Below, one piece after another: positions 17,436 through 64,000 of a DNA stretch of 64,000 bases. Position 1 is the first letter of the stretch. Every line of letters begins with the position of its first letter. The DNA is from a bacterium. Its GTDB lineage: Bacteria > UBP6 > JAFGXH01. The notes below the pieces were generated by a model that was not told the DNA's origin, did not search any database, and was given only the letters and a program-made list of their open reading frames with translations. The stretch covers positions 5,040 to 69,039 of the forward strand of contig JAMOQH010000126.1 of the NCBI GenBank assembly GCA_027064085.1, written 5' to 3'. The position numbers and the translations under genes are program-made.

Positions 17436-17465
17436 GTTTTTCCTTATTAAAAGTTTTAAGTAATC

Positions 17466-19564: not shown

Positions 19565-19567
19565 TTT

Positions 19568-21223: not shown

Positions 21224-21224
21224 A

Positions 21225-21878: not shown

Positions 21879-21989
21879 ATAGTAAACAAAGTATGACGAT
21901 TTTTATTTCATACTCATTTATATATTAACAATAAAAAAAAAATTTGCAAGATTCTTGATTGAATGGTAAAAAGAATGTTTTAGAGTTTC

Positions 21990-22958: not shown

Positions 22959-23019
22959 AAATATTGAATTAATTGTTAAGAAATACTATATTCAACTATA
23001 GTTTTTTATTGGAGTATTT

Positions 23020-23256: not shown

Positions 23257-23257
23257 T

Positions 23258-25518: not shown

Positions 25519-25806
25519 ATGGCAAGAGTAACTGTAGAAGACTGCCTAGTGAAAATACCAAATAGATTTGCATTAGTAATTCTTGCAACACAAAGAACAA
25601 GAATGTTGCTTAGAGGAGCTGATCCAAAAATTGAAAGTGATAATAAATTTCCTGTTATTGCTCTTAGAGAAATCGCAGCAGGTTATGTAAGATTTACAAG
25701 AGATGTAGAAGAAGAATTAAAAGAAACATTTGATGAATTTAAAATCTCTTATTACTACCCAAAAGAAAAGAATACCGATGAAGTTTCAGGATTAACTCTT
25801 ATTTAG
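25519..25806 (+). CDS. rpoZ: DNA-directed RNA polymerase omega subunit
   Basis: [30 protein letters not shown]. Preceded by a GGAGGG Shine-Dalgarno. The track ORF start at 25381 adds 46 low-complexity residues and is probably not the real start. Confidence 0.75.
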
Positions 25807-28878: not shown

Positions 28879-29636
28879 ATCTCTATTGTTTCTCCCATTT
28901 TAGCAAATCTAATTCTATGATCTTTTATCTGTTTTACTTCCTCTATAACGGTATTCGTTACAGAAGGCTTAATATGGTATAAGTAGATAGGAACATCTTT
29001 TTTAATCTTTTTTAAATCTATAGCAAGTGTTGCAGGAGAATAATGTTTTGATGCATCTGCAACATCTTGAAGAGCATTAGAAAATGAAATTTCCATAAAA
29101 ATAGCCTTTAGGTTTTTCTTTCTATTTGCTGTTTTCCAAATTTGATCAGTATTGCTTGTATCTGATGAATAAATAAAACTTGATTTACCATCATCAATAA
29201 CAAATGCAGTTGATAAAACAGTGTGATTAACTTCAACAGAAGTTATTTTATATCCACCCATAGAAAACTTACTGTTAGGTTCGGTTCCTTTAAATTTAAA
29301 TACTGGATTTTCCTTTGTTGGAATAGATGTAAAATCTGGCCAAATTAACCAATTGAATATATTGTTTTTAACTACTTCTAAAGTTTTATGTGCTCCTCTA
29401 ACATTAATTGGAGGTCTTTGTCCAAAAATTAAATCACCCCATAAAGGCAGATCTTTTATGTGATCCATATGTGAATGGCTTAATAATAAGTTGTCAATTT
29501 TAAGCAATGATTCCATATCCATTGAATGCAATAAACCACCTGCATCAATTAATAATTTATCATCAATTAAATAACTTATGCTATGATTTTCAACTCCTAG
29601 TTCTCCACCACTTACGCCTAGCATTGATATTTTCAT
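28875..29636 (-). CDS. MBL-fold hydrolase resembling class II 3',5'-cyclic-nucleotide phosphodiesterase
   Basis: SHSHMDHIKDL fits the HxHLDH class-II PDE / metallo-beta-lactamase motif. Overlaps murG by 4 nt. Confidence 0.45.
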   Translation of the reverse strand: MKISMLGVSGGELGVENHSISYLIDDKLLIDAGGLLHSMDMESLLKIDNLLLSHSHMDHIKDLPLWGDLIFGQRPPINVRGAHKTLEVVKNNIFNWLIWPDFTSIPTKENPVFKFKGTEPNSKFSMGGYKITSVEVNHTVLSTAFVIDDGKSSFIYSSDTSNTDQIWKTANRKKNLKAIFMEISFSNALQDVADASKHYSPATLAIDLKKIKKDVPIYLYHIKPSVTNTVIEEVKQIKDHRIRFAKMGETIEI

Positions 29637-29644: not shown

Positions 29645-30301
29645 CTAATTAAACTCTTTAAATCTTTCTTTTTTAGTTAAGTAATCAAAAAATTCACTAA
29701 ATACTTTAAAGTCAGGAATTTTAAAAATTGGACCATTTATTTGAATTAATAGCTCATTTCTAACTAATTTTGCCAAAACTTTTTTTATTATAATTGAGTC
29801 TATCATAATTGAAGATGCTATATCTGAAACAATTATAGTTAACTCTACTTCATTTTCTTCTTCTTTCATCACTTCAATGCCTTTCTCTCTTAAATAGTGA
29901 ACAACTCGGCTTTCTGGTGTTCTTAGAAGTAAGTTTTCTATTTGTAAGTCTGCTTGAGCAAGCCTAGTTGCGAGTTTTTGTAGCATTTTTATTGCAATAT
30001 CAGCATTTCCTCTTATCATTGCCTCAAAAGTAGACGGATTTATTACTAATATTTTTGAATCAACAGAAACTCTTATTGTTGCAGTTCTTGGTTTTCCATT
30101 AAGTATTGCCATTTCTCCAAAGAATTCTCCTTTTTGTAATGTTGCTAGTACTTTTTCTTGGCCACCTATTTTTTTTAAAACTTCAACTTCTCCTTCTTGA
30201 ATTACAAACATCTCATTACCCTTATCGTTATCATGAAAAAGGTATTCTCCTTGTTTAAAAGACTTTCCGTATTTATTAAATAATTGTTCTTCTGCACTCA
30301 T
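29645..30301 (-). CDS. Crp/Fnr-like cyclic-nucleotide-binding protein
   Basis: GEFFGEMAILNGKPRTATIRVSVDSKILVI cNMP-binding beta-roll. C-terminal helical segment PESRVVHYL. Confidence 0.55.
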   Translation of the reverse strand: MSAEEQLFNKYGKSFKQGEYLFHDNDKGNEMFVIQEGEVEVLKKIGGQEKVLATLQKGEFFGEMAILNGKPRTATIRVSVDSKILVINPSTFEAMIRGNADIAIKMLQKLATRLAQADLQIENLLLRTPESRVVHYLREKGIEVMKEEENEVELTIIVSDIASSIMIDSIIIKKVLAKLVRNELLIQINGPIFKIPDFKVFSEFFDYLTKKERFKEFN

Positions 30302-33419: not shown

Positions 33420-36410
33420 TTATCTTAATAAGCTCATTAAACCTTGAGCTTGCTGATTTGCTTGAGCCAGCATCGCTGTTGATGTTTGAGAAAGAATTTG
33501 TGATTTTGATAATTGAGTTGTTTCTCTTGCAACATCTAAATCTCTAATTGCTGATTCTGCGGCCGTAGTATTTTCTCTTTGGGCAGCTAAATTAGCCATA
33601 GTATATTCTAATCTATTTGCATAAGCTCCAATTCTTGCTCTTTCTGATGAAACCATATCAATAGCTTCATCAAGAGTTCTTATGGATTCTTGAGCTGGTT
33701 CAGGATCTGTTAATAACACCCTTGTTATTCCTAATGCTTGTGCATCCATTTGAGAAATAAATGCATTCATCATTTGCCCTTCGTTTGCTCCAATTTGAAA
33801 ATCCATAGAGTTATCTACTATGTTAATTGTTTCAGTTGATGTTTCATCTGTTGAAGTAAAATCAAAAGCTCTAGTTGCAGTATTCCAATTAACATTTAAG
33901 TTATAATTTGCATCAAATTCTATATCAATTCCATCTATAACACCTTGAAGCCTATTGTCACTAACGGTATCTTGCCCTACAAATTCGCCTGTAATTGCAT
34001 CTCTAACTGTAATGTCCATTTCATTGTTTTTTGCCTCTTGAATAGTAGAAACTCCTAGTGCATTTAATAAGTCTTCATTTGCTGCTAAATATAATCTACC
34101 ATCTTTATCTGTTTTAGGAGATCTAATAACAATAGAGCCTTGCTGATTTTCAAAAGTACCACTTGTTGGAGTATCTATATAATCGGCAACATGCTTATCT
34201 ACAACTACATCACCTGAAGACATTCCCAATCCTCCATCACTTTTATCACCAATTATCGCATTCTCTATTTTCTCAGATAAAACATCTAGTGTGTCTAAAC
34301 CATCGATTAGCACTGTTGAGCTATCTCCAACTCCATTATATACTGTAAGATATTGACCATGATCTCCAAGTATAAAATTTCCATCTGGGTCATAAAATCT
34401 ATCTAAATCAATTAATCTACTATGGCCACTACTATCACCACCGCCATTCATTACATTAAATGTTACTATACCATCACTTACAGGAACACCGGTAACAGAT
34501 TCATTAAAGCTTGTTGCCATAGTTCCAAATTCTATATGTCCTGTTTCTGTATTAATCCAACCTGCTTGTAATTCTGTTGATGCATTGTCTAAGGTGTTAT
34601 CAATATGACTAAATACTGCACCTTGCTGAGGTAAATTATTTGAAGGGTCAAATGCATCTACTCTTGTTAAATCCCTATTGGGAGTATTGTCATTATCATT
34701 AAGGGCAATCAGCATTCTATCTCCAATTTGATAGTTAGCTCCATTACCATTATTTGTAAAAGCTCTATTAAACTCTAATGTCTGTATTCCATCAGTTACA
34801 AGAGTATCAGTTGCTCCATTCCAAATATCATCAGCACTGTACCATGTATCTCCCTGATTAAATGACACTCTTGCATCTAGGCCAGCTGCCCCTAAGCTTC
34901 CATCTGATGTAAATTCAATAATCGCATAACCACCAGTTGCAGAATTACTATTAGTTGTGAATGCATCTGCTGCAGTAGTACCTAAATTACCTAAATTATT
35001 CGTAAATGCATGAAGTCCCTGATCTGCTACTTCAACTGTTGGATCCGCTCCTACAGTTAATGAATAATTGTTGCTTTGACTTGGGTCATCAACAGTAATT
35101 GTTACATTACCCGCACCATCATCATGGGCAGTAATATATTGATTTAAGTCTGTATTTGCATTAATTGCGTCTGCAATTTCAGTTCCATTACCTGCAACTG
35201 TACCTGTTGTTGTGTTTATTACAACAGGAATATCATCTCCACCTAAATTAAATGTTAAATTTACAGCTCCATTAACTGCTGTTGCTGTAATGTCTCCAGA
35301 CATTTGTGAGCTATTTAAACCATTTGAACCATCTTGTAAATATTGTCCAACCATTCCATATATATCATTGGCACCAACTTGTAAGTTTCCATCTGCTCCT
35401 TCGTCAATATTTATTTTATAGTTTGTTGTAGTTGATGGAATTAAACCAACAGTGTTTGAAACACCTGAGATACCCGCTTGAGATTCATTACCTCCTGAGA
35501 AAATATGTATTCCTTGGTCTAATGGGTCAACTCCAGAGCCACTAATCGTAGCTTGAAATCCATTGCCGGCAACACCAGTTTCTCTTGATGTGATTAAAAC
35601 ATCTCCTGTTGGAGTATAATTCGCAATAATACTATCATTTAATCTAGTATCATTATTTATTTGATCAACAATTTCTTGTGCATTATCTAAAATGGTTGCA
35701 CCAGTTGTTGTATAGTTAAAATCTATATCACCATTTCCAAAGTTAAAAATAACATCTACATTTCCTGCAATTGCTGTTGGAGTAATATTTCCTTGCATTG
35801 CTGCTTGTTGTCCAAATAGTGTTATGTCTCTAACGCCTTTGACACCATCTTTAATTCTAAAAACAGATGTTTGTAATACTTGAGGAACGCCTGGGTCTGC
35901 ATGTATTTCTAAGCTATAGGAACCGTCATCAACTTGACCTCTTACAAAAGCATTGATATCTCCTGTTGAAGCAGACCATAATGCACTTGATTCACCAGTT
36001 AAAAGTCTTTTTGTATTAAATTCAGTTCTTTTTGCTGTAGCATCGATTTCTTTAATAAGGGATTCAACTTCATGTTGAACTTCAAGTCTATCATCTGAAG
36101 TTAATGTACCATTAGATGCTTGAATTGCTAATTCTCTCATTCTATGTAGCATTCCATGAACTTCATTTAGAGCTCCTTCTGCTGTTTGAATAAGTGAAGT
36201 TGCTGATTGAGCGTTTTCTTCAGCTCTTGATAAACCTCTTATTTGTGTTCTCATTCTTTCAGATATTGATAAGCCTGATGGATCATCTGCTGCCGAGTTA
36301 ATTCTTAGACCACTTGAAAGTCTTGAGATGGACTTTGTAACCATACTGTTTGCAGTATTTAAGTCATTTTGAGCTGATAAAGCAGCTAAGTTATTATTAA
36401 TTGATAACAT
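33420..36410 (-). CDS. Giant flagellin paralogue 3 (996 aa)
   Basis: N-terminus has LSSGLRINSAADDPSGLSISERMRTQIRGL...TEFNTKRLLTG. C-terminus has RIGAYANRLEYTMANL...LSKSQILSQTSTAMLAQANQQAQGLMSLLR. The central region shares blocks with paralogues 1 and 2. Confidence 0.85.
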   Translation of the reverse strand: MLSINNNLAALSAQNDLNTANSMVTKSISRLSSGLRINSAADDPSGLSISERMRTQIRGLSRAEENAQSATSLIQTAEGALNEVHGMLHRMRELAIQASNGTLTSDDRLEVQHEVESLIKEIDATAKRTEFNTKRLLTGESSALWSASTGDINAFVRGQVDDGSYSLEIHADPGVPQVLQTSVFRIKDGVKGVRDITLFGQQAAMQGNITPTAIAGNVDVIFNFGNGDIDFNYTTTGATILDNAQEIVDQINNDTRLNDSIIANYTPTGDVLITSRETGVAGNGFQATISGSGVDPLDQGIHIFSGGNESQAGISGVSNTVGLIPSTTTNYKINIDEGADGNLQVGANDIYGMVGQYLQDGSNGLNSSQMSGDITATAVNGAVNLTFNLGGDDIPVVINTTTGTVAGNGTEIADAINANTDLNQYITAHDDGAGNVTITVDDPSQSNNYSLTVGADPTVEVADQGLHAFTNNLGNLGTTAADAFTTNSNSATGGYAIIEFTSDGSLGAAGLDARVSFNQGDTWYSADDIWNGATDTLVTDGIQTLEFNRAFTNNGNGANYQIGDRMLIALNDNDNTPNRDLTRVDAFDPSNNLPQQGAVFSHIDNTLDNASTELQAGWINTETGHIEFGTMATSFNESVTGVPVSDGIVTFNVMNGGGDSSGHSRLIDLDRFYDPDGNFILGDHGQYLTVYNGVGDSSTVLIDGLDTLDVLSEKIENAIIGDKSDGGLGMSSGDVVVDKHVADYIDTPTSGTFENQQGSIVIRSPKTDKDGRLYLAANEDLLNALGVSTIQEAKNNEMDITVRDAITGEFVGQDTVSDNRLQGVIDGIDIEFDANYNLNVNWNTATRAFDFTSTDETSTETINIVDNSMDFQIGANEGQMMNAFISQMDAQALGITRVLLTDPEPAQESIRTLDEAIDMVSSERARIGAYANRLEYTMANLAAQRENTTAAESAIRDLDVARETTQLSKSQILSQTSTAMLAQANQQAQGLMSLLR

Positions 36411-46125: not shown

Positions 46126-48480
46126 ATGAAAATAGTTATATTGGTATTAATAAGTATATTTTCGGTATTTTTATCTAGTTGTGGAGGAGATAATACTTCT
46201 AAAACTGAAAAAAAATGTGAGCCTGCGTGTCAGGAATGGAAAGCTTGTAATAATGGTCACTGTGAGTTAAGGCTTGATAGATGTGATACCAATAAGGATT
46301 GTGAGGATAGAAATGATAATAAAATCAGTTGTAATACTGAACTACATGAATGTGTTAAAGAAAATGATACACCTATATGTACTGCAAATGAAAAAAGATG
46401 TAATGAAAATAAGCTAGAAACCTGTAATTTAGAGGGAACTGCATGGGATTTAACAGAAGATTGTGTTCAAGATAATAAAACTTGTGATATTGAAACTTTT
46501 ACTTGTAAAGTAAAGCAAGATACTTGTATAGGTATGTCATTTGATACAATTGAGGTGAAGCGATATAAAAATGAGCTTATTGGTATTAATGGAGAGTATC
46601 AGTTAACAATAGGTTTTTATGATGCAGATTCTCCTGTTGGTGTATATGATTTAGGAGAAAGTAATAATAAAAACTATTCTACATGTAATCAGTGTACTAC
46701 GGTTAGTAAATTTAATGGGGAAGAACTTGATAAAACATTTTTTCAAGTGTCTGGTTCTTTAGAAATAACTGAAGGTGATGGGAAAACCGGGGAATCAGTT
46801 GGAGAGATAACAAATATAAAATTAACAGAAGTTACTATAGAAGACGGAACATTTATTTCAACTTCCGTAGAAAATGGGGAATGTATTGAAATTGAGACAG
46901 GAGCACAATGGAAATGGAATACATTATGTACTCAAGGAAATAAAAGGTGTAATTCAGACGATAATACAATTGAAGTTTGCCAAGCAGACCATTCATGGGC
47001 AGTTGAAACGGCTTGTTTAGAAACCGAAGAATGTACCATAGATGTTGATAATGGAATTTATTGTAAAGCTTCTTATTGTGTTGTTGGTGATAAAAGATGT
47101 AATGATAATGGTAATGTTCAAATATGCAAAGAAGACAATAATGGTAATTTTTGGGATATATTTGAGAACTGTACAAATGGAACAGTTTGTGAAGATGTTG
47201 GTTTTACATGTGTTGAACCTCCTTGTACAAATGGGGATAAAAAATGTAATGCTGATAATACAGGAGTAAAAACTTGTATAAATAATTCATGGGAAGAAGA
47301 ATTATGTGCTATTGATAGTGGTGAAATATGTATGGGAACAGGAAGTTTGGTAACATGTGGGATACCATCATCAGATGCAAATTGGGTGAAAGTTAGTGCA
47401 AATAGTGTTCAGTCATGTGGGATAAAAAGTGTTGCTGGAGTGAACAAATTATATTGCTGGGGAACAGGAAGTTTTGGAAGACTCGGAAATGGAACTGATG
47501 AAAATAAATTAACTCCAACAGAAGTAAATATTACTGAAAATAGTGGCTGGACAGATGTTTCTGTTGGTGGATATCATGCCTGCGGATTAAAAAACGGCAA
47601 AATTTATTGCTGGGGTAAAAATGATAAAGGACAACTAGGAACGGGTAATTATACTGATTCAAATATTCCTGTTGAAATTAGTGGAGATAATACCGGATAT
47701 CTTGATGTAGAAAGTGGGGGATACCATAGTTGTGGTATTAAGGCAAATGGAAAATTATACTGTTGGGGTAGAAATGACAACGGGCAGATTGGCAATGATT
47801 CTCTTGATAATGTTACAACTCCTATTGAAATACCTGGAAATTGGATAAATGTTTCTTTAGGGGATAAGCATAGTTGTGGGATACAAGATATTAATGGAGT
47901 AAATACGCTTTATTGTTGGGGGTATAATTCTTATGGAAGGCTAGGTATAGATAGTGATAGTGTAATAGAATTTAAAATACCACAGAAAGTTTATGGAACT
48001 AATGGTGATACACTAAATAAAGATTGGACTAGTGTTTATGTGGGGCATGATAGTAGTTGTGCAATTAAAACAACAGGTAAAATGTATTGTTGGGGGCATG
48101 GAAATAATCATAAATTAGGAACAGGAAATACTGATAATCAGCAAATACCAACTGAAATTACTGGAGAAAACTGGGTTAGTGCGGGGATAGGTTACAGTCA
48201 TATTTGTGGGATTAAAAATCTTAGTGGTGTTAAAACTGCTTTTTGCTGGGGTAAAGCTACAAATGGAAGGCTAGGGCTTAATAGTGAAACTGAAATGAAT
48301 ACTCCTACTCAATTAACTTTAACTGGTTGGACTGAAATAACAGCAGGATTAAGCCATACTTGTGGGATAAAAGAAGAAAATGGTGGTAAAATGCAATTAT
48401 ACTGTTGGGGAAAAGCTTCAAGTGGAAGATTAGGAACAGGTAATGAAGATGATAAATGGATTCCTGCTTTAATTCCTTAG
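46126..48480 (+). CDS. Secreted RCC1/BLIP-II beta-propeller lipoprotein with four N-terminal Cys-rich ~45-aa repeats
   Basis: Lipobox LSSCGG. Repeats of the form [N/G][E/D]K[R/K]CN..N......C.......W....E.C......C. Seven RCC1 blades (YCWG.N..GQLG..). Confidence 0.7.
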   Translation: MKIVILVLISIFSVFLSSCGGDNTSKTEKKCEPACQEWKACNNGHCELRLDRCDTNKDCEDRNDNKISCNTELHECVKENDTPICTANEKRCNENKLETCNLEGTAWDLTEDCVQDNKTCDIETFTCKVKQDTCIGMSFDTIEVKRYKNELIGINGEYQLTIGFYDADSPVGVYDLGESNNKNYSTCNQCTTVSKFNGEELDKTFFQVSGSLEITEGDGKTGESVGEITNIKLTEVTIEDGTFISTSVENGECIEIETGAQWKWNTLCTQGNKRCNSDDNTIEVCQADHSWAVETACLETEECTIDVDNGIYCKASYCVVGDKRCNDNGNVQICKEDNNGNFWDIFENCTNGTVCEDVGFTCVEPPCTNGDKKCNADNTGVKTCINNSWEEELCAIDSGEICMGTGSLVTCGIPSSDANWVKVSANSVQSCGIKSVAGVNKLYCWGTGSFGRLGNGTDENKLTPTEVNITENSGWTDVSVGGYHACGLKNGKIYCWGKNDKGQLGTGNYTDSNIPVEISGDNTGYLDVESGGYHSCGIKANGKLYCWGRNDNGQIGNDSLDNVTTPIEIPGNWINVSLGDKHSCGIQDINGVNTLYCWGYNSYGRLGIDSDSVIEFKIPQKVYGTNGDTLNKDWTSVYVGHDSSCAIKTTGKMYCWGHGNNHKLGTGNTDNQQIPTEITGENWVSAGIGYSHICGIKNLSGVKTAFCWGKATNGRLGLNSETEMNTPTQLTLTGWTEITAGLSHTCGIKEENGGKMQLYCWGKASSGRLGTGNEDDKWIPALIP

Positions 48481-54301: not shown

Positions 54302-54586
54302 ATAATAGATAAAAATGCAAAATTAATAAGAGTCTGCTTTTAAAAGATGTAGCACTTTTACTTGATTTATTATCCTACCCTTATAATTTCCAAAATCTTA
54401 TTGTTTTATGCAATATTACTTAAATTTTAATATTTCCCCTTATTTTTCCTTGGAAAATGCCATAAGAATAAGGCTACAATCTAAGTTTTTCTTAATTTAT
54501 ATCTGTAGTTGCACATTAGTTATATTGCTAATTTTAATTATGAAACAGTAAAATAGCAAATATTGTCAATCAATAGCCCCTAAATC

Positions 54587-54615
54587 TTGACTTTAATAAC
54601 AAATCACAATATACT
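54587..54615 (+). promoter_or_regulatory. Sigma70-type promoter (TTGACT-N17-TATACT) for the giant surface protein
   Basis: -35 at 54587-54592, a 17-nt spacer, -10 at 54610-54615. AGGTG Shine-Dalgarno at 54629-54633. ATG at 54640. Confidence 0.45.
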
Positions 54616-54639
54616 TTTATTATCTTTTTAGGTGTTGTT

Positions 54640-57600
54640 ATGTTGAAATTATTAAATAAATTATATTTTTTTATACTATTACTAACTTTATTTTCTGTCA
54701 ATATTTTTGCTATAGTTGAAGGGACTTATCCCGATAGTACAAATTTGAAAAAATATTCAGTATTTGGTTCTGTTGTAACAACAGGAAATACCATGATGGC
54801 TACAACTCCTCCAGGTAATGTAAATGACATATTACTTTCAGAAAGTAGTGGAGATTTAAAAAATATGCCTTTTGATGCTGAAATTGTATCTGCACATATT
54901 TTTTGGTCTGGATCTCTTGGGCCAAGTTTGTTTGTACCAGATGACAATATAACACTTTTAACTAAAGATAATGATATTCATAATATTCAAGCTGATAGTT
55001 GTAAAGTTGTTACAAATATGGAAGGCTTTTATTATTGTTCTGCAGATATAACTACAACTATTGTTAATCAAAATATTGTAAATTACAATGGTCGTTATAC
55101 TGTTAGTAATTTAAAGGGAGATGTTGGAGATTGCGAAACGAATCCATATATTTGCCAAGCAAAATATGCTGCATGGAGTATGGTTGTTGTTTATAAGTCT
55201 AAGAGTGCAAAGGTAAAAAGGGAAATCTTACTTTATGATAGTTTTTTACATTTAGATGAAAGAGAAGATAGTATAGGTATAACTCATTTTGATATTACAA
55301 ATTTAACAGTAAATAGCCCTGCAAGAGGAGAATTTACTTATTTTGGCCTCGAAGGAGACAGGTTTTTAGGTGTTCCTCCTCAAGATGCTCCTGAAAATCA
55401 ATATCCATGTGACACTTGTTATGATTTTATATCATTAAACAATGTAAAATTATACGATGATTTAAATCCTCCTAACAATATATGGAACTCATCTATTGCA
55501 ACTGCTGTAGATATAGATACTTTTAAAATTGGAAATCAAGGTTTAAATATTTTAAGAAGTGGAACCAATAAGACTATACATGTGAAACTTGGAAGTGGTG
55601 ATGGAATTATTCCGAATGAACACCCTGAAGCAGGTGGAGGAGAATCTGTATTTTTAGGTTATGTGTTGCTTGCTCTTGATACAATTTCGCCTAATTTTAG
55701 AACAACTAATACAAATTTGATTGTTGATAGAACGGTTGCGTCTCAAGGAGATGAATTAACTTATATTTTAACAGTTACTAATGATGGTTCTAAAATTGCT
55801 CATAATGTAATTGTTTCTAATCTTATTCCTCCTGAAACAACTTATGTGGATAATTCAACTTATATAGATGGAGTACTTGCAAGTAACGATATTGCTACTC
55901 CAATGGGATTAAATATTGGCACTATAGATTTTAGAGGCACAAATAATAAAAAAATTATTACTTTTAGAGTAAAAATAAAGTCTACTGCTATTGATGGAAC
56001 TTATGTTTATAATAAAGCAAAAATTATAAGTGATGAAACAATCAATGACCCAAGTTTAACAAATCAAGTTAAAACATTAATAAATGCTCCAGTATTACAA
56101 ACTCCAATATTAACAGTTAGAGACGAAAATGGAGGAAGTTATTTACCTGGAGAATGGGTAGAGTATAGTGTTAAAATTTTAAATAATAGCAATAATCCTA
56201 TATCAAATTTAGTTTATGAAAATACTTTAGGTCTTGATTTTACTCAAATAATGCTTAGCTCTATTCCTTTTAATGCAAGCGATAACTCAAATTTAGCAAA
56301 CAAAAAAATAAGTATTTCATCAATTCAAGTTCCTGCAAGAAGTGCTATTTTTATTAAATATAGAGCTAAAATTAAAACAATACAAGAATATATTGATTCT
56401 GGTACGCCAGAAGATCAAATAAACAATAAAAGTATCTCTAATCAAGGAGAACTATCTATTTCAACAAGGCCAGAACTTATACTTACAGATAATGACAATG
56501 GTGGAAATGAGCATGATCCAACGGTATTTACTATAAAAAAAGAAGTAAATGCGAATTTTTCTGATTCAACTATGACAGTTGAAAATACTAATGGAAGTAG
56601 TGAATTTCATCCTGGAGATAGAGTTAAATATACTATAAAAGTTAAAAATTCAGCAACAGCAACAGTTAATGCTATAAATGTATTAAATGACATAGATGAA
56701 AATTATTTTGAGGAAATTACCGTTAATAATGGTTTTTATGATGGGGATAAATTAACATGGCTCATAGCTTCCTTAGCTCCAAGTGCAGAAACAACATTAA
56801 TTTTTACTGCAAAAATTAAAAAGCCACAAGCTAATGGACTTGTTATTCAAAATCAAGCAAGTATTTTTGTTGCAGGACGCTCAGATTTAACAGATGATCC
56901 AACAACTACCATTTTAGATGATCCAACTAAGTTTACAATTACAGCAAGTTCATCAAATTTTATATTTTCAACTAAAGAAGTAATAGATGAAAATGGAGGA
57001 ACTTATTTTCAACAAGGAGATTATGTTACTTATGTTATAAAAATTAAGAATACAGGCGAAGCCGTAGGGGGAAATTTAACCGTAGAAGATTCAATTAATA
57101 GTAATCTTGTCGATATAGAGGTATTTAATAATGGAGTTTATAATAATAATAAAATAACTTGGAATTATATCAATACCCCAGAATTAGTAAATGTATCAGG
57201 CGAAGTTACTCTTAAATTTAGAGCAAAAATCAAAAGTACAGTAGCAAATGGTACTGTAATATCAAATCAAGCTTTTATTAGTTCTACAGACAGTCCTAGA
57301 ACATATTTAACAGACGATCCAACAACTTCTAGTGTAAGTGATAGTACAAATTTTACTGTTAACTCAGCTGCAGAATTAACAGAATCATATAAAACCTACG
57401 AAGATTTAAATGGTGGTGATATAGAGCCAGGCGATGAGATAAAATATACTATTCAGTTAAGAAATACAGGTAACTTAGAAGTTACAAATATCTCTGTTAT
57501 TGATAATGTAGATACAAATAATCTTGAAAATATTATAGTGGAAGATAATGGAATTTATAGTAATGGCAACATAAATTGGGCAGGTATTACTAGTCTTGCT

Positions 57601-60600
57601 CCACATACAAATTTAGAACTACATTTTACGGCTAAAATAAAAGAAAACACTACTCATAATACAAAGATATCAAATCAAGCTATAATTATGAGTACAGAAA
57701 TACCATTTGCATTCACTGATGATCCAAATACAGCAGAAAAAGACGATGCAACTAGCTTTTTAGTTATGGCAATTCCTGATTTGTCTTTTACTAAAACAGT
57801 TGTAAATACAAATGGAACTACAGAATTTAAAATAGGTGATAGAGTAAAATATACCATTAATATAGTAAATAATTCTTCTTCTGAAACTGGAAATATAACA
57901 ATTACAGATTTAATACCTCGTGATTTAGAAAATGTAACTCTTTCAAGTGGAGGAATACTAAATGGTAATCAAGCATATTTTTATTTACAACCTATAACTT
58001 CTCCTATAGCTTTAACTATAGAAGGTGATATTAAAGCTAGTGGTGAAATATGTAATCAAGCAAGCCTTGAAGATGTGAATTTTAATTATACTATTAACTC
58101 TGACGATCCTAATACCTTAAGTGAAAATGACAGTACTTGTTTTAATGTTATACAAGTTATAAAAGTTGAAAATTTCAAAAAAACATTTACAGATATCAAT
58201 GGTGGTAATATAGAACCTAATGATATTATTGAATATGAATTAAGTTTTGACAATAATAGTGATGTAAGTTTGAACAATTTGGTTATTACAGATAATATTG
58301 ACACTAATTTAACAGATATAAACTTAATAGATGGTGGATATTTTAACGGAAATATTATTACATTTAATTCTTTAAATACTCCTAAATTAGCAAATATTGC
58401 TCCAAACACTAGTGTTATTATTAAATTTAGGGCAAAAATTAAAACTCCACTTGCAAATAATACTGTTATTTCAAATCAAGCAGAATTAAACATTGAAGAT
58501 ATTAACTTAGTTTCTGATAATCCTAATACTCCTATTGAAAATGATGCTACAGAGTTTAATATTGTTTCTTCTCCTAAAATAAAATTTACTAAAGTTGTTA
58601 AAAATGTAAATAACTCAACAGAATATAAACCAAATGATAATGTCATGTATACTATAACTGCTTTAAATACAGGTACAGAAATAGCAAATAACATACTAAT
58701 AAAAGATATATTAAGTAATGATTTAACTAATTTATCAGCATCTCAAGGTAGTTTCAATAATAACGAATTTACATTAAATTTACCTCAATTAAATGTAAAT
58801 CAACCTATAACTATAACAATTAATGCAAAAATCAAAGATAGCGTTAGTAATAATACAGTAATTTCAAATCAAGCTTCTTTAGATAGTGATAATACTAATC
58901 AAATACTTTCTGACGATTCTGATACCCCTATTGCTAATGACCAAACTAAATTTACTGTAACTAGAGAAACTTTGCCTACAAATTTAAAAGCTTATAAAAC
59001 TAGTGATAAAAAAATATATTTTAATAATGATATAGTAACTTATACCATAGAGCTTAAAAATGAAGGGCAAACTACCGTAAATAATATTATTTTAACTGAT
59101 GAATTAAATAGTAACTTAGAATTTATTTCTGCAACAAATAATGCAGTATTTACTAATGGAGTAATAAAATGGGATTACAATACTAGCCCTGATTTGCTGT
59201 CTATTATGCCTAATAACTCGGTAAATATTACTATAAAAGCAAAAGTAAAAAATACTGTTAGTGATTCTACTATTATAGAAAATCAAGCAAGCTTTACATT
59301 TAACAATGAGCCTGAAATTCACCTTACTGACGACCCTAGTACTCCACAATTCGATACAACTAAAATTACTGTTGCTAGTTATGATGTTTCTGATTCAACA
59401 AAAGAGGTTTTTGATTCTAATAATGATGGTGCATTTGTTCCAAATGAGGAGTTAACATATAAAATTACTATTAAAAATAGCTCCAGTATTACAACAATTA
59501 GAGATATAAATGTAGTTGACTATTTTCCATTTTCAAAACTAGATTTATTGGATACTACCGGTTTAATTATCAATGAAACAAGTAAAACTATTACTTTTAC
59601 TCCAGAAAATTTTCCTGAATTACTAGAATTAGCTCCTAATACTAGTGTAGAACTTATATTAAGGGCAAAAATTAAAGATTTAGCCACAAATGGAACTACA
59701 ATAAGTAATCAAGCATTTATTTCATTTAATGGAGAAAATCAAAATATTCCAACAGATGATCCTAAAACTACTGATATAGATGATGCAACTAATTTTAAAC
59801 TTTCTGCAAAAGCAGATTTATCAGATTTTACTAAAACAGTAGCATCAGATAATGGATATTTTCCTAATGAAGAAATCAGATATACCATTAAAGTTAAAAA
59901 TAAAGGAACCGCAAAAGCTAAAAACTTAATAATTACCGATTCTATAGATGATAATCTTGAAATTATAGATGCTCAAGAAGGTGAAATAACAGCTAATAAA
60001 ATATTGTTTCACTATAATAACATTGATACATTAAAAGAGTTAAAGTCAAATGAAGAAGTGTCATTTGTTATCAAAGCAAAGATAAAAGATGGAGTAAATA
60101 ACAATAAAATAATATCTAATCAAGCTATACTTAATTCTGAATCAATTCCTAATTCAGAGCTTAGCGATGACCCAACTACTACCCAAGAAAATGATGCTAC
60201 TATATTTAAAGTAATTAATTCCTCTAAATTATATGCAGAAAAGATAGCAATAGATTTAAATGCGGGTAAAATAGAAATTGGCGATATAATAAGATATCAA
60301 ATAAAAGTATATAATAAAGGTTACAAAACATCTTTTGATACCAAATTATACGATGAAATTCCTTCTTATACTCAATATATAGAAAATTCAACAAAATTAA
60401 ATGATGAAACTGTAGCTGACAATAACGGTGTTGCCCCTTTTATAGATGGAATGGATTTAGGAGATATAGATATTTATGATAATACAGATAATACCGTTAA
60501 AATAATTACTTTTGAAGTTAAAATACTTGATACTGCCCCTGATGGAGCTAAAATAGAAAATCAAGCAAGTATAGAAAATGCAGATGGAGAGAAAGCTGTT

Positions 60601-63600
60601 ACTGATGATCCAAATACTAGTCAAGAAAATGATGCTACTGTAATTTATTTAGATGATAGCTCTTCTATTTTTAATAAATTTGATAAAACCGCAATACTTG
60701 AAGATACAAATAATAATGGTAAAGCAGATATAGGGGAGCTTATAAAATATCAAATAGAATTAGATATTAAAGATTTGCCAGAAACTATTACTATAGAAGA
60801 TGCAATACCACAAAATACTAACTATGTTTTTGGTAGTTTACAAGTAAATAGAATACATCAAACAGATGAACAAGATACTGATATGGCATATTTTGAAAAC
60901 AATAAAGCTTATTTTAAAATTTATCCTTTTGAAGATACTAATACTAAAGCTAGTCTTTCTTTTAAAGTAGAAATAAAAGAAGGAAATAAAGTTGTAAATC
61001 AAGCAAAAACATTTTTTGATAATAAAACTTATTTAAGCGATGACCCTAATACTCCTATCAAAAACGATGCAACTATAACTTACATAGGAGATACACAAGA
61101 AGCTAATTTATCTATAAAAAAAGAAGTAAAAGATATTAATGGGGGCATTACTTTAGCAAACGACGAATTAGAATATAAAATTACTGTCCAAAATACTGGT
61201 AATAAAGAGGCTGAAAATAGTGAAATTATAGATGATTTACCTGAAAGTTTGGAGTATATTTCTAATAGTGAAGAACTTTCTGATGTTTCTGCTCATTATA
61301 TTTATAATCCTAATATAGGCAATGGACAAATCAAAATTTATGGATTGAATATAGACAAAGCTGGTAAATTTATTGTAAAATTTAGAGTTAAGATAAAAGA
61401 TACTGTTCAAAAAGCTGATAAAATTACAAATATTGCAACTTTAAATAATGAAAAACAGAGTAGTGCTTCTGTAGTTATAGGAGCTAGTGCTGGAACAGCA
61501 TCTATTTACGGAGATTTATCATATTTTAATGAAAATAATGAAAAAATAGCTCTAAAAAACTATAAAATTGAAATAACAGAAATCAAAAAAGCAGAAAATC
61601 TAAAAGTTTATACTACTACAACAGATGAAGATGGTTTATTTAGAATTGATAATATCAAACCTGCAGAATATTTATTAAAATATTATAATTCAAATGGTAC
61701 TTTCTTTGGAGAGAAAAAATTAAATTATTTAAGTTCTGAAAACGATAACAAGCTCAATCTTGTTTTTATTCCTACTGGTTTTATTTATAACTCTAAAACA
61801 AAATCCAAAATAGATAATGCAAGAATTTATTTATATAATAAAACAGCAAATGACAACATAATTCATTCAAATTGTTTTGATTTAGACTTAGTTACTCTTC
61901 CTACAAATCAACAAGGTCAATTACTAGAAAGCAATGGTTTATATAAATTTACTGTTAAAGATACTAACTATGATAAGCTAGGTATATGTGTGATGGGATA
62001 TCCAAAATATACTTTCCCTTCTAGCCTTAAAAAACCTTCTTTTGGTGAAGTTGAAAATGAAAATGGACATATTTCTAATAATAAATATTATCTTGAATTT
62101 ACTCCAACTGATAATTTAGACATTCTTAATAATAATAATATAGCTCTTGACCCAATTGAAAACTCAATTAAAATCACAAAGTCAGTTGACCAAAAAACTT
62201 CTACAGCAAATTCTATTATTACATATAGAATTAAAGCTCAAAATAAATCTAGCTATTCTTTTGAAGGAACAAATGGTGTTTTTATATATGATTTACTACC
62301 TAAAAACTTTAAGTTAATCAATAAATCATACAAAGCAATAATAACTAGCTTAGATGGAAGTCAAAAAGTAATAAAAGATATAGCTATTAATTTATCATCT
62401 CAAAATTTAACATTTGGTCCTATAGATTTTAAAGAAGGTGATGAGATAGAAATATCATATAGAGTTGCAATAGGTTCCAATGTTAAATTAGGTAAATATA
62501 AAAATATTGCCTATGTATTAGATAGTAATTTAGAAAAATTATCTTTTGAAGCTAGTGCTGTTATACAAATTAAATATGATTTTGATTTTGATATGGGAGC
62601 GGTAATAGGTAAAGTCTATTGTGATGACAATAAAAACTCATATCAGGATATAGGAGAAATAGGTTTAAAGAATGTTGATATTTATAATGATGAAGGCTTT
62701 GTTTCTAAAACTGATGAATATGGAAGATACCACTTTACAGTATTAAAACCAGGGGCTCATTTAATAAAATTAGATAAAAATACTTTATTATCAGGAATAA
62801 AACCTATTGAAGAAAAAAGAACTATAAGGATAACAAAAGGTTTATTATCAAAAGTAAATTTCCCCGTTGATTGTAAAGAAGTAAATAAAGATAAAAAGTT
62901 TTTAGCTATAAATAAGAAAAAAGCTAAACTTAGCCCTATCAAGGATTTAATAACATTAAGGGGCAATTTAAATAAAAGAATCTTTTTGGGTAATAAAGAA
63001 ATAACTGTAAAAAATTATATATTAAAACAAAATAAAAAATTAGTCACAGAAGATGAAGAAAATACTTATTTTATTAAAGATTTAAATGATAAAGTTTTAG
63101 TAAATTATTATATTTATAAATTTGATAAAGAATTATTTAGCAACAAAACTAAATTAACAGATTTATATAGATTTATACAACAACGGGGTAAATTAAAGAT
63201 AAAATTACCTGCAAATCAGTATCTTGTTTTTGCTGAAATAGTAAAAAATAATAAAATTTACAGAACTGCTCCTATAATTTCTATGTCTCAAAGAATACCA
63301 AATGAAAAGGGAGAAGGGTTAATAAGTTTTAAAAAGCTAAAATTTGAGTTTAATCCACAATTATTTATTAATGGAAGGCTAATAAATAGCTCAAAATCAG
63401 GTAATCTATTTCATGTTTTTCATAAAGATAATCTAAAAAATGCCTCAATACTCTATAAAGCTCCTAATGGTATATCTGTAAATGAACTAATGGCTTTAGC
63501 TGTTAGTTCTAGTAAGAGTGTTGCTTCTCGTAATCATGTTAGTATTGATGGTATTGGTGCTAGTGTTATTGAAAATACTGAAGTCGGTGCTAGTGCTAGT

Positions 63601-64000
63601 TCAGCTTCAGCTGTTAGTGCTGGTAATAGTGTTAGTTCTGGTGCTAGCAATAGAGTTAGTGTTGGTGATAACAGTAATAGTATTAGTGATAGTAGTGGTT
63701 ATTTGGATAAATTTTTATCTAAAAAAGATAAAAATGATATAAAAACTCAATATGATTCTTTTGGTGAAGATAGAATTACAAAAGAATTTGCTTCACAAAT
63801 TAAAAAAGAACAGTACATTAAAAATTTTTATGGATTGAGGCTAGCTCTTCCTGTTGAGGGTGCAATTATTCATTCTGATTCTATAAATATACATGGATTT
63901 CAACCTGAAAATTATGAAATTACTATAAATAATAATAAAGTTATAGCAAATGCAGATGGCTATTTCGATTTAGAATTAAAATTGAGTAATAAAACTAAAC
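54640..64000 (+). CDS. Giant surface protein/adhesin with DUF11 repeats, >3120 aa and 3'-truncated by the window edge: signal peptide, ~390-aa N-terminal domain, ~16 DUF11 'conserved repeat' modules, CnaB/SdrD-B-like domains, and a Ser-rich low-complexity segment
   Basis: Frame 1 is open from the ATG at 54640 to the end of the window. It is not in the ORF track because no stop occurs in-window. Repeats follow the pattern ...GD.V.YTI.V.N.G...A.N..I.D.L.......NG.......I.W.......P......F.AKIK....NGT.ISNQA......TDDPNT...DD.T.F.V. Later sequence includes YTTTTDEDGLFRIDNIKPAEY (CnaB-like) and GKVYCDDNKNSYQDIGEIGLKNVDIYNDEGFVSKTDEYGRYHF (SdrD-B-like). Confidence 0.8.
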   Translation, partial: MLKLLNKLYFFILLLTLFSVNIFAIVEGTYPDSTNLKKYSVFGSVVTTGNTMMATTPPGNVNDILLSESSGDLKNMPFDAEIVSAHIFWSGSLGPSLFVPDDNITLLTKDNDIHNIQADSCKVVTNMEGFYYCSADITTTIVNQNIVNYNGRYTVSNLKGDVGDCETNPYICQAKYAAWSMVVVYKSKSAKVKREILLYDSFLHLDEREDSIGITHFDITNLTVNSPARGEFTYFGLEGDRFLGVPPQDAPENQYPCDTCYDFISLNNVKLYDDLNPPNNIWNSSIATAVDIDTFKIGNQGLNILRSGTNKTIHVKLGSGDGIIPNEHPEAGGGESVFLGYVLLALDTISPNFRTTNTNLIVDRTVASQGDELTYILTVTNDGSKIAHNVIVSNLIPPETTYVDNSTYIDGVLASNDIATPMGLNIGTIDFRGTNNKKIITFRVKIKSTAIDGTYVYNKAKIISDETINDPSLTNQVKTLINAPVLQTPILTVRDENGGSYLPGEWVEYSVKILNNSNNPISNLVYENTLGLDFTQIMLSSIPFNASDNSNLANKKISISSIQVPARSAIFIKYRAKIKTIQEYIDSGTPEDQINNKSISNQGELSISTRPELILTDNDNGGNEHDPTVFTIKKEVNANFSDSTMTVENTNGSSEFHPGDRVKYTIKVKNSATATVNAINVLNDIDENYFEEITVNNGFYDGDKLTWLIASLAPSAETTLIFTAKIKKPQANGLVIQNQASIFVAGRSDLTDDPTTTILDDPTKFTITASSSNFIFSTKEVIDENGGTYFQQGDYVTYVIKIKNTGEAVGGNLTVEDSINSNLVDIEVFNNGVYNNNKITWNYINTPELVNVSGEVTLKFRAKIKSTVANGTVISNQAFISSTDSPRTYLTDDPTTSSVSDSTNFTVNSAAELTESYKTYEDLNGGDIEPGDEIKYTIQLRNTGNLEVTNISVIDNVDTNNLENIIVEDNGIYSNGNINWAGITSLAPHTNLELHFTAKIKENTTHNTKISNQAIIMSTEIPFAFTDDPNTAEKDDATSFLVMAIPDLSFTKTVVNTNGTTEFKIGDRVKYTINIVNNSSSETGNITITDLIPRDLENVTLSSGGILNGNQAYFYLQPITSPIALTIEGDIKASGEICNQASLEDVNFNYTINSDDPNTLSENDSTCFNVIQVIKVENFKKTFTDINGGNIEPNDIIEYELSFDNNSDVSLNNLVITDNIDTNLTDINLIDGGYFNGNIITFNSLNTPKLANIAPNTSVIIKFRAKIKTPLANNTVISNQAELNIEDINLVSDNPNTPIENDATEFNIVSSPKIKFTKVVKNVNNSTEYKPNDNVMYTITALNTGTEIANNILIKDILSNDLTNLSASQGSFNNNEFTLNLPQLNVNQPITITINAKIKDSVSNNTVISNQASLDSDNTNQILSDDSDTPIANDQTKFTVTRETLPTNLKAYKTSDKKIYFNNDIVTYTIELKNEGQTTVNNIILTDELNSNLEFISATNNAVFTNGVIKWDYNTSPDLLSIMPNNSVNITIKAKVKNTVSDSTIIENQASFTFNNEPEIHLTDDPSTPQFDTTKITVASYDVSDSTKEVFDSNNDGAFVPNEELTYKITIKNSSSITTIRDINVVDYFPFSKLDLLDTTGLIINETSKTITFTPENFPELLELAPNTSVELILRAKIKDLATNGTTISNQAFISFNGENQNIPTDDPKTTDIDDATNFKLSAKADLSDFTKTVASDNGYFPNEEIRYTIKVKNKGTAKAKNLIITDSIDDNLEIIDAQEGEITANKILFHYNNIDTLKELKSNEEVSFVIKAKIKDGVNNNKIISNQAILNSESIPNSELSDDPTTTQENDATIFKVINSSKLYAEKIAIDLNAGKIEIGDIIRYQIKVYNKGYKTSFDTKLYDEIPSYTQYIENSTKLNDETVADNNGVAPFIDGMDLGDIDIYDNTDNTVKIITFEVKILDTAPDGAKIENQASIENADGEKAVTDDPNTSQENDATVIYLDDSSSIFNKFDKTAILEDTNNNGKADIGELIKYQIELDIKDLPETITIEDAIPQNTNYVFGSLQVNRIHQTDEQDTDMAYFENNKAYFKIYPFEDTNTKASLSFKVEIKEGNKVVNQAKTFFDNKTYLSDDPNTPIKNDATITYIGDTQEANLSIKKEVKDINGGITLANDELEYKITVQNTGNKEAENSEIIDDLPESLEYISNSEELSDVSAHYIYNPNIGNGQIKIYGLNIDKAGKFIVKFRVKIKDTVQKADKITNIATLNNEKQSSASVVIGASAGTASIYGDLSYFNENNEKIALKNYKIEITEIKKAENLKVYTTTTDEDGLFRIDNIKPAEYLLKYYNSNGTFFGEKKLNYLSSENDNKLNLVFIPTGFIYNSKTKSKIDNARIYLYNKTANDNIIHSNCFDLDLVTLPTNQQGQLLESNGLYKFTVKDTNYDKLGICVMGYPKYTFPSSLKKPSFGEVENENGHISNNKYYLEFTPTDNLDILNNNNIALDPIENSIKITKSVDQKTSTANSIITYRIKAQNKSSYSFEGTNGVFIYDLLPKNFKLINKSYKAIITSLDGSQKVIKDIAINLSSQNLTFGPIDFKEGDEIEISYRVAIGSNVKLGKYKNIAYVLDSNLEKLSFEASAVIQIKYDFDFDMGAVIGKVYCDDNKNSYQDIGEIGLKNVDIYNDEGFVSKTDEYGRYHFTVLKPGAHLIKLDKNTLLSGIKPIEEKRTIRITKGLLSKVNFPVDCKEVNKDKKFLAINKKKAKLSPIKDLITLRGNLNKRIFLGNKEITVKNYILKQNKKLVTEDEENTYFIKDLNDKVLVNYYIYKFDKELFSNKTKLTDLYRFIQQRGKLKIKLPANQYLVFAEIVKNNKIYRTAPIISMSQRIPNEKGEGLISFKKLKFEFNPQLFINGRLINSSKSGNLFHVFHKDNLKNASILYKAPNGISVNELMALAVSSSKSVASRNHVSIDGIGASVIENTEVGASASSASAVSAGNSVSSGASNRVSVGDNSNSISDSSGYLDKFLSKKDKNDIKTQYDSFGEDRITKEFASQIKKEQYIKNFYGLRLALPVEGAIIHSDSINIHGFQPENYEITINNNKVIANADGYFDLELKLSNKTK
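55830..61480 (+). repeat. Tandem array of ~16 DUF11-type ~120-aa coding repeats inside the giant surface protein gene
   Basis: Periodic recurrence of AKIK...ISNQA...TDDP(N/T)T motifs every ~360-380 nt in frame 1. Bounds are approximate. Confidence 0.6.

Follow-up and report, generated by a model that had tools for sequence, protein, structure and literature searches.

We analyzed a 64,000-nucleotide stretch of contig JAMOQH010000126.1 (hereafter the window; 28% G+C), which ends within a single giant gene on the forward strand. The open reading frame (ORF) begins at 54640, runs in frame 1 to the window edge at 64000, and comprises 3,120 codons with no stop; it is still open where the window ends. 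An earlier note on this DNA had described such an uninterrupted frame and had interpreted its product as a giant, exported, repeat-built surface-filament protein. Both statements are borne out, the former by the reading frame itself and the latter by the DUF11 repeats, SdrD_B domain, and low-complexity tract described below. The gene continues beyond the window, and its closest relative, P0028, is 4,048 amino acids (aa) long. The full-length protein is predicted to contain ~4,050 residues, with the window encoding the first 3,120 and about 23% of the gene lying beyond the window end.

The start of the gene is well delimited. The closest in-frame stop upstream is at 54574, and the only start candidates that follow it are ATG at 54640 and the adjacent codon, TTG at 54643. 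Reading of the sequence places a ribosome-binding site (AGGTG, 54630–54634) 5 nucleotides (nt) ahead of the ATG (the two elements together spanning 54630–54642), and P0028 begins at the equivalent ATG. At the base composition of the window, a random frame would meet a stop every ~13 codons, and 3,120 open codons would arise by chance with a probability of ~1e-111. The longest ORF in any other frame over 54640–64000 encodes 107 aa.

A sigma-70-like promoter candidate, TTGACT-N17-TATACT (54587–54615), matches the consensus at 10 of 12 positions and is the best site of the intergenic region, in agreement with the strong sigma70 promoter that had been noticed earlier. Promoter-like sites of this kind are frequent in AT-rich DNA (7 found versus 3.7 expected). 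The candidate is nonetheless credible because the gene encoding P0028 is preceded by identical hexamers and a largely identical spacer, while the DNA farther upstream is unrelated.

To collect relatives, an exhaustive HMMER search with aa 2715–3120 was carried out over 1.84 billion representatives and returned three proteins, two of which are full-length members of the family. P0028 is encoded on an ENA metagenome contig (L001, 27% G+C) and is colinear with the window protein (72% identity, window aa 1–3119 versus P0028 aa 1–3113), with 15 repeat modules in both. P0029 (MBN2693584.1, "DUF11 domain-containing protein [bacterium]") comprises 4,452 aa and 16 modules and is 41% identical. It originates from the metagenome-assembled genome (MAG) ZodW_Metabat.349 (JAFGXH), a 28.9% G+C, ~3.6 Mb genome from the sulfidic Zodletone spring that has been assigned to a novel class of the GTDB candidate phylum UBP6 (PMC9040765, supplementary file 3). 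UBP6 members in methanogenic bioreactors have been described as anaerobic amino-acid degraders and possible syntrophs (PMC7382037). Given its 28% G+C and its copy of so rare a gene family, the window probably derives from this broad lineage as well. A third copy of the family, truncated, lies on contig DYRY01000043.1 (L003, 28.5% G+C), with a tail 45% identical to that of P0028. The record labels this contig Anaeromyxobacter dehalogenans; we rejected the label as a guide to taxonomy, as it is incompatible with 28.5% G+C and almost certainly wrong. No relative of the last 400 aa of the window protein was found among GTDB representatives, an exact look-up of the neighboring TraB-like protein gave no record, a scan of JGI metagenomes led back to the P0028 organism alone (L004), and a word-based protein search with aa 2281–3120 gave one partial match.

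Codon-level comparison with P0028 gives a ratio of nonsynonymous to synonymous substitution rates (dN/dS) of 0.20 for the protein as a whole. The most conserved region is the SdrD_B domain (dN/dS 0.075, 88.6% aa identity), and the most conserved long region is the N-terminal head (0.098, 87.5%); values for single repeat modules range from 0.13 to 0.34, with 62–83% identity. Together, the colinear 72%-identical orthologue, the dN/dS values, and the conserved promoter establish that the gene is real and under selection.

DNA similarity between the window and L001 is confined to the giant gene, and the two neighborhoods differ, including the DNA just ahead of the promoter (window 54302–54586). 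In the window, the gene is flanked by genes for a TraB/PrgY-like protein, RuvX, MltG/YceG, and CstA. The L001 flanks (1–1909 and 14190–24115) carry an AAA-ATPase/PDDEXK gene and, downstream, genes for a 1,308-aa hybrid sensor kinase/AraC regulator and β-helix (pectate-lyase-like) proteins. The giant gene thus retains its own promoter and not its neighborhood. An all-versus-all ORF comparison of the window with L001–L004, which together represent four loci (the window, L001/L004, L002, and L003), revealed zero conserved neighbor genes. Because no neighbor is conserved among the four loci, nothing points to a dedicated partner, be it a sortase, an usher, or a transporter of the TpsB type.

Head, stalk, and linker of the giant protein

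The repeats form the bulk of the protein. Pfam matches DUF11 (PF01345) over 11 stretches with E = 1e-97 and 322.7 bits (cut-off 24.6), and the sister families DUF7619, DUF7507, and DUF7927 are also found in this region. NCBIfam detects B_ant_repeat (TIGR01451, ten copies, 276 bits) and four copies of the RrgB-type isopeptide domain TIGR04226. A hidden Markov model (HMM) built from the protein's own repeats resolves 14 contiguous modules at aa 345–2278 (128–146 aa each) and a separate, diverged 15th at aa 2490–2637. The DUF11 repeats proposed in the earlier note are therefore present, and the count of ~16 is corrected to 15. The same note had described DDP(N/T)T linkers between modules. The motif occurs, with 10 exact matches to DD[PS]xT, but it forms the conserved C-terminal end of the modules rather than a separate linker.

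In 2025, DUF11 was renamed CLIPPER, a CnaA-like isopeptide domain that builds the stalks of Gram-negative fibrillar adhesins (PMC12617251). In the structure of a CLIPPER domain (PDB 9IFR), the triad of the isopeptide bond is K715/D748/N806; the bond raises the melting temperature from ~45 to ~80 °C and protects against proteinase K. Some DUF11 domains do not contain the triad (PMC12617251). In the literature, the isopeptide chemistry has been demonstrated for 9IFR only.

We aligned the window modules with one another and with known structures. In the 15-module alignment, Lys, Asp, and Asn occupy aligned columns in modules 4–12, 14, and 15, the Lys of module 13 sits two residues earlier than the aligned column, and the Asn of an "NQA" motif is invariant throughout. 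The 15-module profile matches 9IFR (E = 1.9e-5) with the catalytic Asp aligned. Since this alignment stops short of the Lys and Asn columns, their assignment rests on spacing: the K-to-D and D-to-N distances are 38 and 59 residues here versus 33 and 58 in 9IFR, a difference attributable to a short D-x-N-G insertion. The PDB entry that the profile matches best is the giant surface protein GhpA (9flp; E = 3.8e-11, made up of weak stretches in Ig domains); the profile also matches the pilins EbpB and Spb1. Searches of the PDB with single modules (phmmer) gave nothing useful, and 9IFR and GhpA were reached by the 15-module profile only. Judged from these residues, 11–12 of the 15 modules probably form isopeptide bonds.

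The triad is not evenly distributed along the stalk. In modules 1–3 (aa 345–756; 55672–56907), the Lys column holds Asn, Leu, or Met, and the Asp column holds Asn. The triad-bearing stretch begins with module 4 and runs through module 14 (aa 757–2278; 56908–61473, covered by the Pfam DUF11, DUF7507, and DUF7619 and TIGR04226 matches), and the diverged module 15 (aa 2490–2637; 62107–62550), a stretch also matched by P0001, carries the K/D/N triad as well. The per-module residues of P0028 match those of the window protein, the triad-less modules 1–3 included, and modules 1–3 of P0029 are likewise without a complete triad. This pattern suggests that modules 1–3 form a neck under the head that is deliberately left without crosslinks and may be more compliant. 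The isopeptide (CLIPPER) nature of the DUF11 repeats and the conserved N-terminal head are both points that go beyond the earlier note.

Giant DUF11 surface proteins are common, and variation in repeat copy number had been put forward as a check on this one. The modules are only 17–42% identical to the reference module. Tandem Repeats Finder found no ~420-nt tandem array in the module DNA, and the DNA repeats within the gene are at most 67 nt long and 60–80% identical, so that the module DNA is too diverged for easy recombination. In view of the absent array, the short, diverged repeats, and the equal number of modules in P0028, copy-number variation is unlikely, and we rejected recent repeat expansion or copy-number instability.

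Ahead of the stalk, inspection of the sequence indicates a Sec-type signal peptide at aa 1–24 (54640–54711), with MLKLLNKLYFFILLLTLFSVNIFA before the predicted cut and IVEG after it. It has a Lys-containing n-region, a 13-residue hydrophobic core, and I-F-A preceding the cut, and it contains no lipobox Cys. The start of the mature protein, A-x-V-x-G-T, is conserved among homologues of the domain that follows.

This N-terminal head (aa 25–344, 320 residues; 54712–55671) is all-β and appears to be a distant relative of DUF3344. It contains six of the 12 Cys residues of the window protein (positions 121, 133, 165, 172, 257, and 260), consistent with disulfides made outside the cytoplasm. The head has zero Pfam matches even at E ≤ 1, either to DUF3344 (PF11824) or to catalytic families. 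Its homologues are 35–46% identical and come mostly from Myxococcota MAGs, and in several of them DUF11 repeats follow the head. The N-terminal domain of a more distant homologue, a Dokdonella "DUF11 domain-containing protein" (P0022, head-profile E = 3e-18), passes the Pfam threshold for DUF3344 (29.3 versus 27.2 bits). By this transitive route, the head appears to be related to DUF3344, yet it is not a member by the Pfam criterion; it represents a distinct subfamily found mainly in Myxococcota MAGs and in the low-GC lineage of the window. Monzon et al. 2022 (PMC9210967) list DUF3344 itself among the N-terminal domain clusters (cluster 23) of predicted fibrillar adhesins and regard its function as ambiguous. 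The combination of head and DUF11 repeats thus recurs, in Myxococcota MAGs and in Dokdonella.

An AlphaFold2 (AF2) model of the head built from 20 sequences is confident (predicted local distance difference test score, pLDDT, 82; predicted template-modeling score, pTM, 0.83) and consists of ~20 strands in an all-β arrangement. Foldseek searches of the PDB and BFVD gave template-modeling (TM) scores of at most 0.26 for the top-ranked matches and a maximum of 0.30 anywhere in the lists. The top PDB matches are PNGase F and GH86 β-sandwiches, followed by jelly-roll capsid proteins. According to the model, the head has no close structural relative, and these matches are too weak for a functional assignment.

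Among the distant matches to the head profile are proteins of ~780 aa whose N-terminus is that of a PilX-like pilin. One of these, P0020 (767 aa; L005 8001–10304; GCA_030603275.1, JAUVYB010000006.1), is a distant head homologue with such an N-terminus and is encoded in a type IV pilus operon that contains PilB-, PilC-, PilM-, and PilT-like genes, pseudopilins, and a prepilin peptidase. It thus seems that a pilus-associated protein, and not the giant fiber alone, bears the head-type domain. Another homologue, P0004 (L006 8001–9674; ENA ERZ650344 NODE_968), has the head at the end of a short protein, after a Cys-rich MopE/Stig1-like region and with no stalk, and therefore the head can function outside the giant-fiber context. 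The P0004 gene adjoins a caspase-like Peptidase_C14 gene. The strong constraint on the head and its reuse on a pilin-like protein suggest that it is probably the functional end of the fiber.

The lower part of the stalk is more heterogeneous. Between modules 14 and 15 lies a stretch of ~210 aa (aa 2279–2489; 61474–62106) with sub-threshold matches of the transthyretin/prealbumin type (CnaB clan), among them CarboxypepD_reg (26.8 versus 32.3) and fn3_3 at aa 2308–2352. The equivalent region of P0029 passes the Pfam threshold for the SpaA prealbumin-like family (25.4 versus 23.1). Cna_B itself has zero Pfam matches in the window protein. The label "CnaB-type" used in the earlier note would therefore hold, if at all, for the fold clan only, and its companion, the SdrD-B-type domain, is confirmed: SdrD_B (aa 2638–2725; 62551–62814) scores 36.0 bits in Pfam over aa 2658–2713 (cut-off 29.7). 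Its D-x-N-x-N...D loop, CDDNKNSYQDIGE, is of the kind that binds calcium in SdrD, and the domain probably binds calcium as well.

SdrD_B is followed by a conserved β-rich spacer of no known family (aa 2726–2940; 62815–63459) that is 75% identical to P0028 with a dN/dS of 0.13. It has no Pfam match and no sequence match in the PDB, and among the 1.84 billion representatives it is matched only by P0028 and P0029.

The low-complexity Ser/Ala/Val/Gly segment that follows (aa 2941–3020; 63460–63699) had been recognized earlier and compared to the stalks of cell-wall-anchored adhesins. The segment is real (S 29%, A 14%, V 12%, and G 10%, together 65%) and contains a 24-nt repeat in 2.1 copies at 63617–63667, but it is not a conserved stalk. 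The DNA alignment of the window with L001 breaks at one place only, 63446–63699, where the window protein and P0028 cannot be aligned, and P0029 has an insert of several hundred low-complexity residues at this position instead. The tract is a hypervariable linker.

Beyond it, the sequence becomes alignable again. An Ig-like, Glucodextran_B-type domain (aa 3021–3120; 63700–63999) is cut by the window edge. It is 58% identical to P0028, matches the Glucodextran_B repeats of P0030, and marks the start of the conserved C-terminal module.

The C-terminal module of the relatives

P0028 and P0029 run 935 and 924 aa, respectively, beyond the equivalent of the window end, and from just before this point to the C-terminus (~1,030 aa) they are 44.5% identical. 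As a whole, the module has no match in Pfam, NCBIfam, or the PDB. Over the final 376 aa of the three available sequences, Pfam gives eight weak matches, of which seven are to families of outer-membrane β-barrels and one is to the uncharacterized DUF7840. DUF481 reaches 24.3 bits (cut-off 21.1), in P0028 alone, and matches below the cut-off include DUF2490 and OMP_b-brl (each in three of three), FadL/Toluene_X (two of three), Opacity porin, BBP2_2, and Phage_OMP. A tail profile searched against the PDB returned noise together with two designed transmembrane barrels, which were the best non-ribosomal matches and are weak (E = 0.2–0.5).

The composition of the tail is consistent with these matches. 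It contains no Cys, 0.9% Pro, and 13.5% Phe+Tyr and has no hydrophobic helix; judged by eye, it is a run of ~10-residue amphipathic strands with short turns between them. The three C-termini, ...GGGFFVRASGSF (...FFVRASGSF), ...GGFFIRVSGVW, and ...GGFFIRVSGTW, show alternating hydrophobic residues and a final aromatic Phe or Trp. From these features we infer that the C-terminal module ends in an outer-membrane β-barrel, a well-motivated reading of the sequences.

The host has an outer membrane, as the window encodes FlgI, the flagellar P-ring protein, which is a feature of diderm cells. The flgI gene (8733–9821, +) is followed by a gene for a FlgJ-like protein (9818–10552, +), in which the rod-binding domain is joined to an M23 peptidase in place of the muramidase. 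Signals of other anchoring or export routes were sought in the window protein and its relatives. An LPXTG motif is absent from the window protein and from P0028, and P0029 has a single internal LPITG at aa 1455, far from its C-terminus. Pfam families of the type IX secretion system (T9SS) have no match in the relatives, and the Autotransporter, Omp85, and POTRA families have no match in P0028 or P0029, whether whole proteins or tails were searched, even at E ≤ 10. The analogy to a Gram-positive, cell-wall-anchored adhesin drawn in the earlier note is therefore not upheld, given FlgI in the window, the missing LPXTG signal, and the barrel-like ~935-aa module at the end of the relatives.

Proposed role and rival explanations

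We consider it likely that the gene encodes an outer-membrane-anchored, fibrillar-adhesin-like surface protein with autotransporter-like topology, produced by a diderm, flagellated, low-GC (28%) uncultured bacterium. In this model, transcription would start from the conserved sigma-70-like promoter, and the product would be exported by the Sec pathway with cleavage of the signal peptide after Ala24. The C-terminal module, seen in the 72%- and 41%-identical colinear relatives and comprising ~300 conserved residues and a large β-barrel ending in Phe or Trp, would insert in the outer membrane, as its weak family matches suggest. The 3,000-residue N-terminal part would then be displayed outside the cell in an autotransporter-like topology. 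Its stalk would consist of 15 CLIPPER Ig-like domains, 11 or 12 of which may autocatalytically form a Lys–Asn isopeptide bond with the help of a neighboring Asp, and these bonds would confer tensile, thermal, and protease resistance. The transthyretin-type stretch and the probably calcium-binding SdrD_B domain would lengthen the base of the stalk, while the hypervariable Ser-rich linker is probably a flexible hinge near the membrane. At the distal end, the 320-residue, disulfide-containing, DUF3344-like head is probably the working end that binds a target. In its architecture, with a signal peptide, a tandem-repeat stalk, and a surface anchor (the last seen only in P0028 and P0029), the protein matches the class of fibrillar adhesins. 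Assuming 4–5 nm per Ig-like domain, an order-of-magnitude estimate of the fiber length is 70–100 nm.

Several observations weigh against this assignment. The anchor lies beyond the window and is known from the relatives only. Every β-barrel match except one is under its curated cut-off, our own scans for alternating hydrophobicity (amphipathicity) did not separate the tail from the soluble β-sandwich stalk, and a strict conserved-pattern scan gave only six segments; we took neither kind of scan as evidence. An AF2 model of the tail, built from a two-sequence alignment, reached a pLDDT of 28 and was discarded. No known type V translocator family that would carry a 3,000-residue passenger across the outer membrane is matched, and we therefore do not file the protein as a type V member. 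Residues are the sole basis for assigning the isopeptide bonds. Finally, the head has no recognizable ligand-binding family or close structural neighbor (TM ≤ 0.26 for the top matches), and adhesion is an inference.

The same C-terminal module raises a bolder and more tentative possibility. The ~935-aa unit (Ig-like domain, ~300 residues, and large barrel) might be an undescribed self-anchoring and self-exporting translocator. It would constitute a new type V-like class whose isopeptide-locked passenger exceeds 3,000 residues and bears a head that also occurs on type IV pilus proteins. Its known occurrence is so far limited to a rare, uncultured low-GC lineage (UBP6 and relatives). We regard this as possible, though doubtful.

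A nonadhesive surface structure would share much of this architecture. The protein could be a spacer, a protective fibril coat, or an S-layer-like element on a porin-like barrel that keeps cells, phages, or particles away. Such a role would accommodate the lack of a detected adhesive family in the head and a C-terminal barrel of apparently ~600 aa, which is larger than a minimal anchor requires, and DUF11 proteins in archaeal porin and S-layer contexts as well as stalk-only "periscope"-type proteins are described in the literature (PMC12617251; PMC9210967). We nonetheless think it unlikely, as the head is the most constrained long region of the protein (dN/dS 0.098, 87.5% identity), which fits a specific function better than a passive cap, and as the head domain is also found on a pilin-like protein of a type IV pilus operon.

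The fiber could also serve to capture prey or a host, in predation, epibiosis, or host association, with a role like that of the grappling hooks formed by Aureispira GhpA. GhpA is the best PDB match of the module profile (9flp, E = 3.8e-11; bioRxiv 10.1101/2024.01.29.577165), the nearest relatives of the head are in Myxococcota, and the window encodes two ankyrin proteins (one of 1,032 aa), an RCC1 protein, and three giant flagellins. The likeness to GhpA is, however, restricted to generic CLIPPER-like Ig domains, and we saw no GhpA head, T9SS signal, or type VI secretion system. UBP6 members, moreover, are described as anaerobic amino-acid degraders and possible syntrophs (PMC7382037). Capture of this kind would itself be a form of adhesion and not a genuinely different explanation, and it appears improbable to us.

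A role as an enzyme held off the cell by the stalk is very improbable. It would make the head a glycan-acting enzyme (a PNGase F-like amidase or a glycosidase accessory fold), as might be read from Foldseek, which among PDB structures ranks PNGase F (E = 3e-5, probability 0.98) and the β-sandwich part of GH86 agarases highest. These matches have TM scores of 0.21–0.26, a root-mean-square deviation above 12 Å, and ~10% identity; the others listed are generic jelly-roll proteins, viral capsids among them, and the head sequence matches no catalytic family. That the gene is a chance frame, an assembly chimera of repeats, or a pseudogene is effectively refuted: the window edge does cut it and repeat-rich genes are prone to misassembly, but the frame would stay open by chance with a probability of ~1e-111, dN/dS is 0.20, an orthologue is colinear with an equal 15 modules, and repeats of at most 67 nt and 60–80% identity make collapse unlikely.

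The remainder of the window contains further large genes. As the earlier note had stated, giant flagellins are encoded; there are three and not more, at 1329–4814 (−), 4998–8474 (−), and 33420–36410 (−), with lengths of 1,161, 1,158, and 996 aa. In each, an insert of ~800–900 aa separates normal Flagellin_N and Flagellin_C ends. The 993-aa ORF that adjoins one flagellin gene (30311–33292, −) does not encode a further flagellin; its product joins a CHASE2 sensor to an adenylate/guanylate cyclase. Next come genes for a cyclic nucleotide monophosphate (cNMP)-binding protein (29645–30301, −) and a metallo-β-lactamase-fold/class-II phosphodiesterase-like protein (28875–29636, −), and the three genes look like a compact cyclic-nucleotide signaling cassette. 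Eukaryote-like repeat proteins are also present: a 1,032-aa protein built almost entirely of ankyrin repeats (14337–17435, −), a 319-aa ankyrin protein (25799–26758, −), and a 784-aa protein with seven RCC1 repeats (46126–48480, +). Ankyrin- and RCC1-type repeat proteins are typical of host-associated or cell-interacting bacteria.

The isopeptide nature of DUF11 stalks and their role in Gram-negative fibrillar adhesins are already published. What is new here is the combination of a distinct head subfamily, conserved triad-less modules next to the head, and an uncharacterized C-terminal module of ~935 aa with β-barrel signatures, a combination so far encountered in just four genomes or contigs, which represent a rare uncultured lineage. 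The CLIPPER stalk has been known as an isopeptide-locked Gram-negative fiber only since 2025, from a characterized example with an OmpA-like anchor, and in the giant protein it is joined to two uncharacterized ends. If the barrel exports its own passenger, the type V-like secretion repertoire would be extended. A very long, covalently stabilized natural rod could also interest protein engineers, and the protein is a first point of entry to the cell surface in a candidate phylum that, to our knowledge, has no cultured members. For annotation, the point is that the protein should not be treated as a Gram-positive-style, wall-anchored adhesin.

Comparison with known systems

Features that invite comparison with Gram-positive adhesins of the MSCRAMM (microbial surface components recognizing adhesive matrix molecules) and pilin types (SdrD, Cna, RrgB, EbpB, and Spb1) are the SdrD_B domain, isopeptide-type Ig domains (TIGR04226 and weak matches of the module profile to EbpB and Spb1), and a low-complexity, Ser-rich tract. 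Unlike those proteins, the window protein has no LPXTG/sortase signal and no Cna_B match, its host is diderm (FlgI), and even the 72%-identical orthologue does not conserve its Ser-rich tract.

The proposed topology is that of type Va autotransporter adhesins, in which one polypeptide unites an N-terminal Sec signal, a surface passenger of great length, and a C-terminal outer-membrane β-barrel; no conserved partner gene accompanies it. The C-terminal module here, however, comprises ~935 aa rather than ~300 and has no autotransporter barrel, Omp85, or POTRA match. The type Va passenger is a β-helix borne by a 12-strand Autotransporter barrel, whereas the passenger here is a string of Ig-like domains, which places the protein outside that class.

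GhpA of Aureispira (PDB 9flp) is also a giant (5,898 aa) Gram-negative surface fiber with CLIPPER-like Ig domains. The likeness is limited to the Ig modules (stretches of 2–14 bits), the heads differ, and no evidence of predation was found for the window organism. The predicted fibrillar adhesins with DUF3344 domains (PMC9210967) resemble the window protein in placing a large all-β N-terminal domain ahead of a repeat stalk, although the window head, with no Pfam match at E ≤ 1, forms a separate subfamily.

In overall plan, the protein is comparable to B9T28_05395 of Acinetobacter silvestris (PDB 9IFR; Costa et al. 2025, PMC12617251). Both belong to Gram-negative bacteria, and both have a signal peptide, an N-terminal head, and a tandem CLIPPER stalk with the Lys/Asp/Asn triad. 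They differ at each end: the Acinetobacter head is CshA-like and the window head DUF3344-like, and the OmpA-like peptidoglycan-binding domain that anchors B9T28_05395 is replaced, in the relatives of the window protein, by an integral module of ~935 aa with a predicted β-barrel. Within the stalk, the window modules each carry a 4–5-residue insertion, the D-x-N-G loop, after the Lys. At ~4,050 aa versus 2,129 aa, the window protein is predicted to be about twice as long as its Acinetobacter counterpart.

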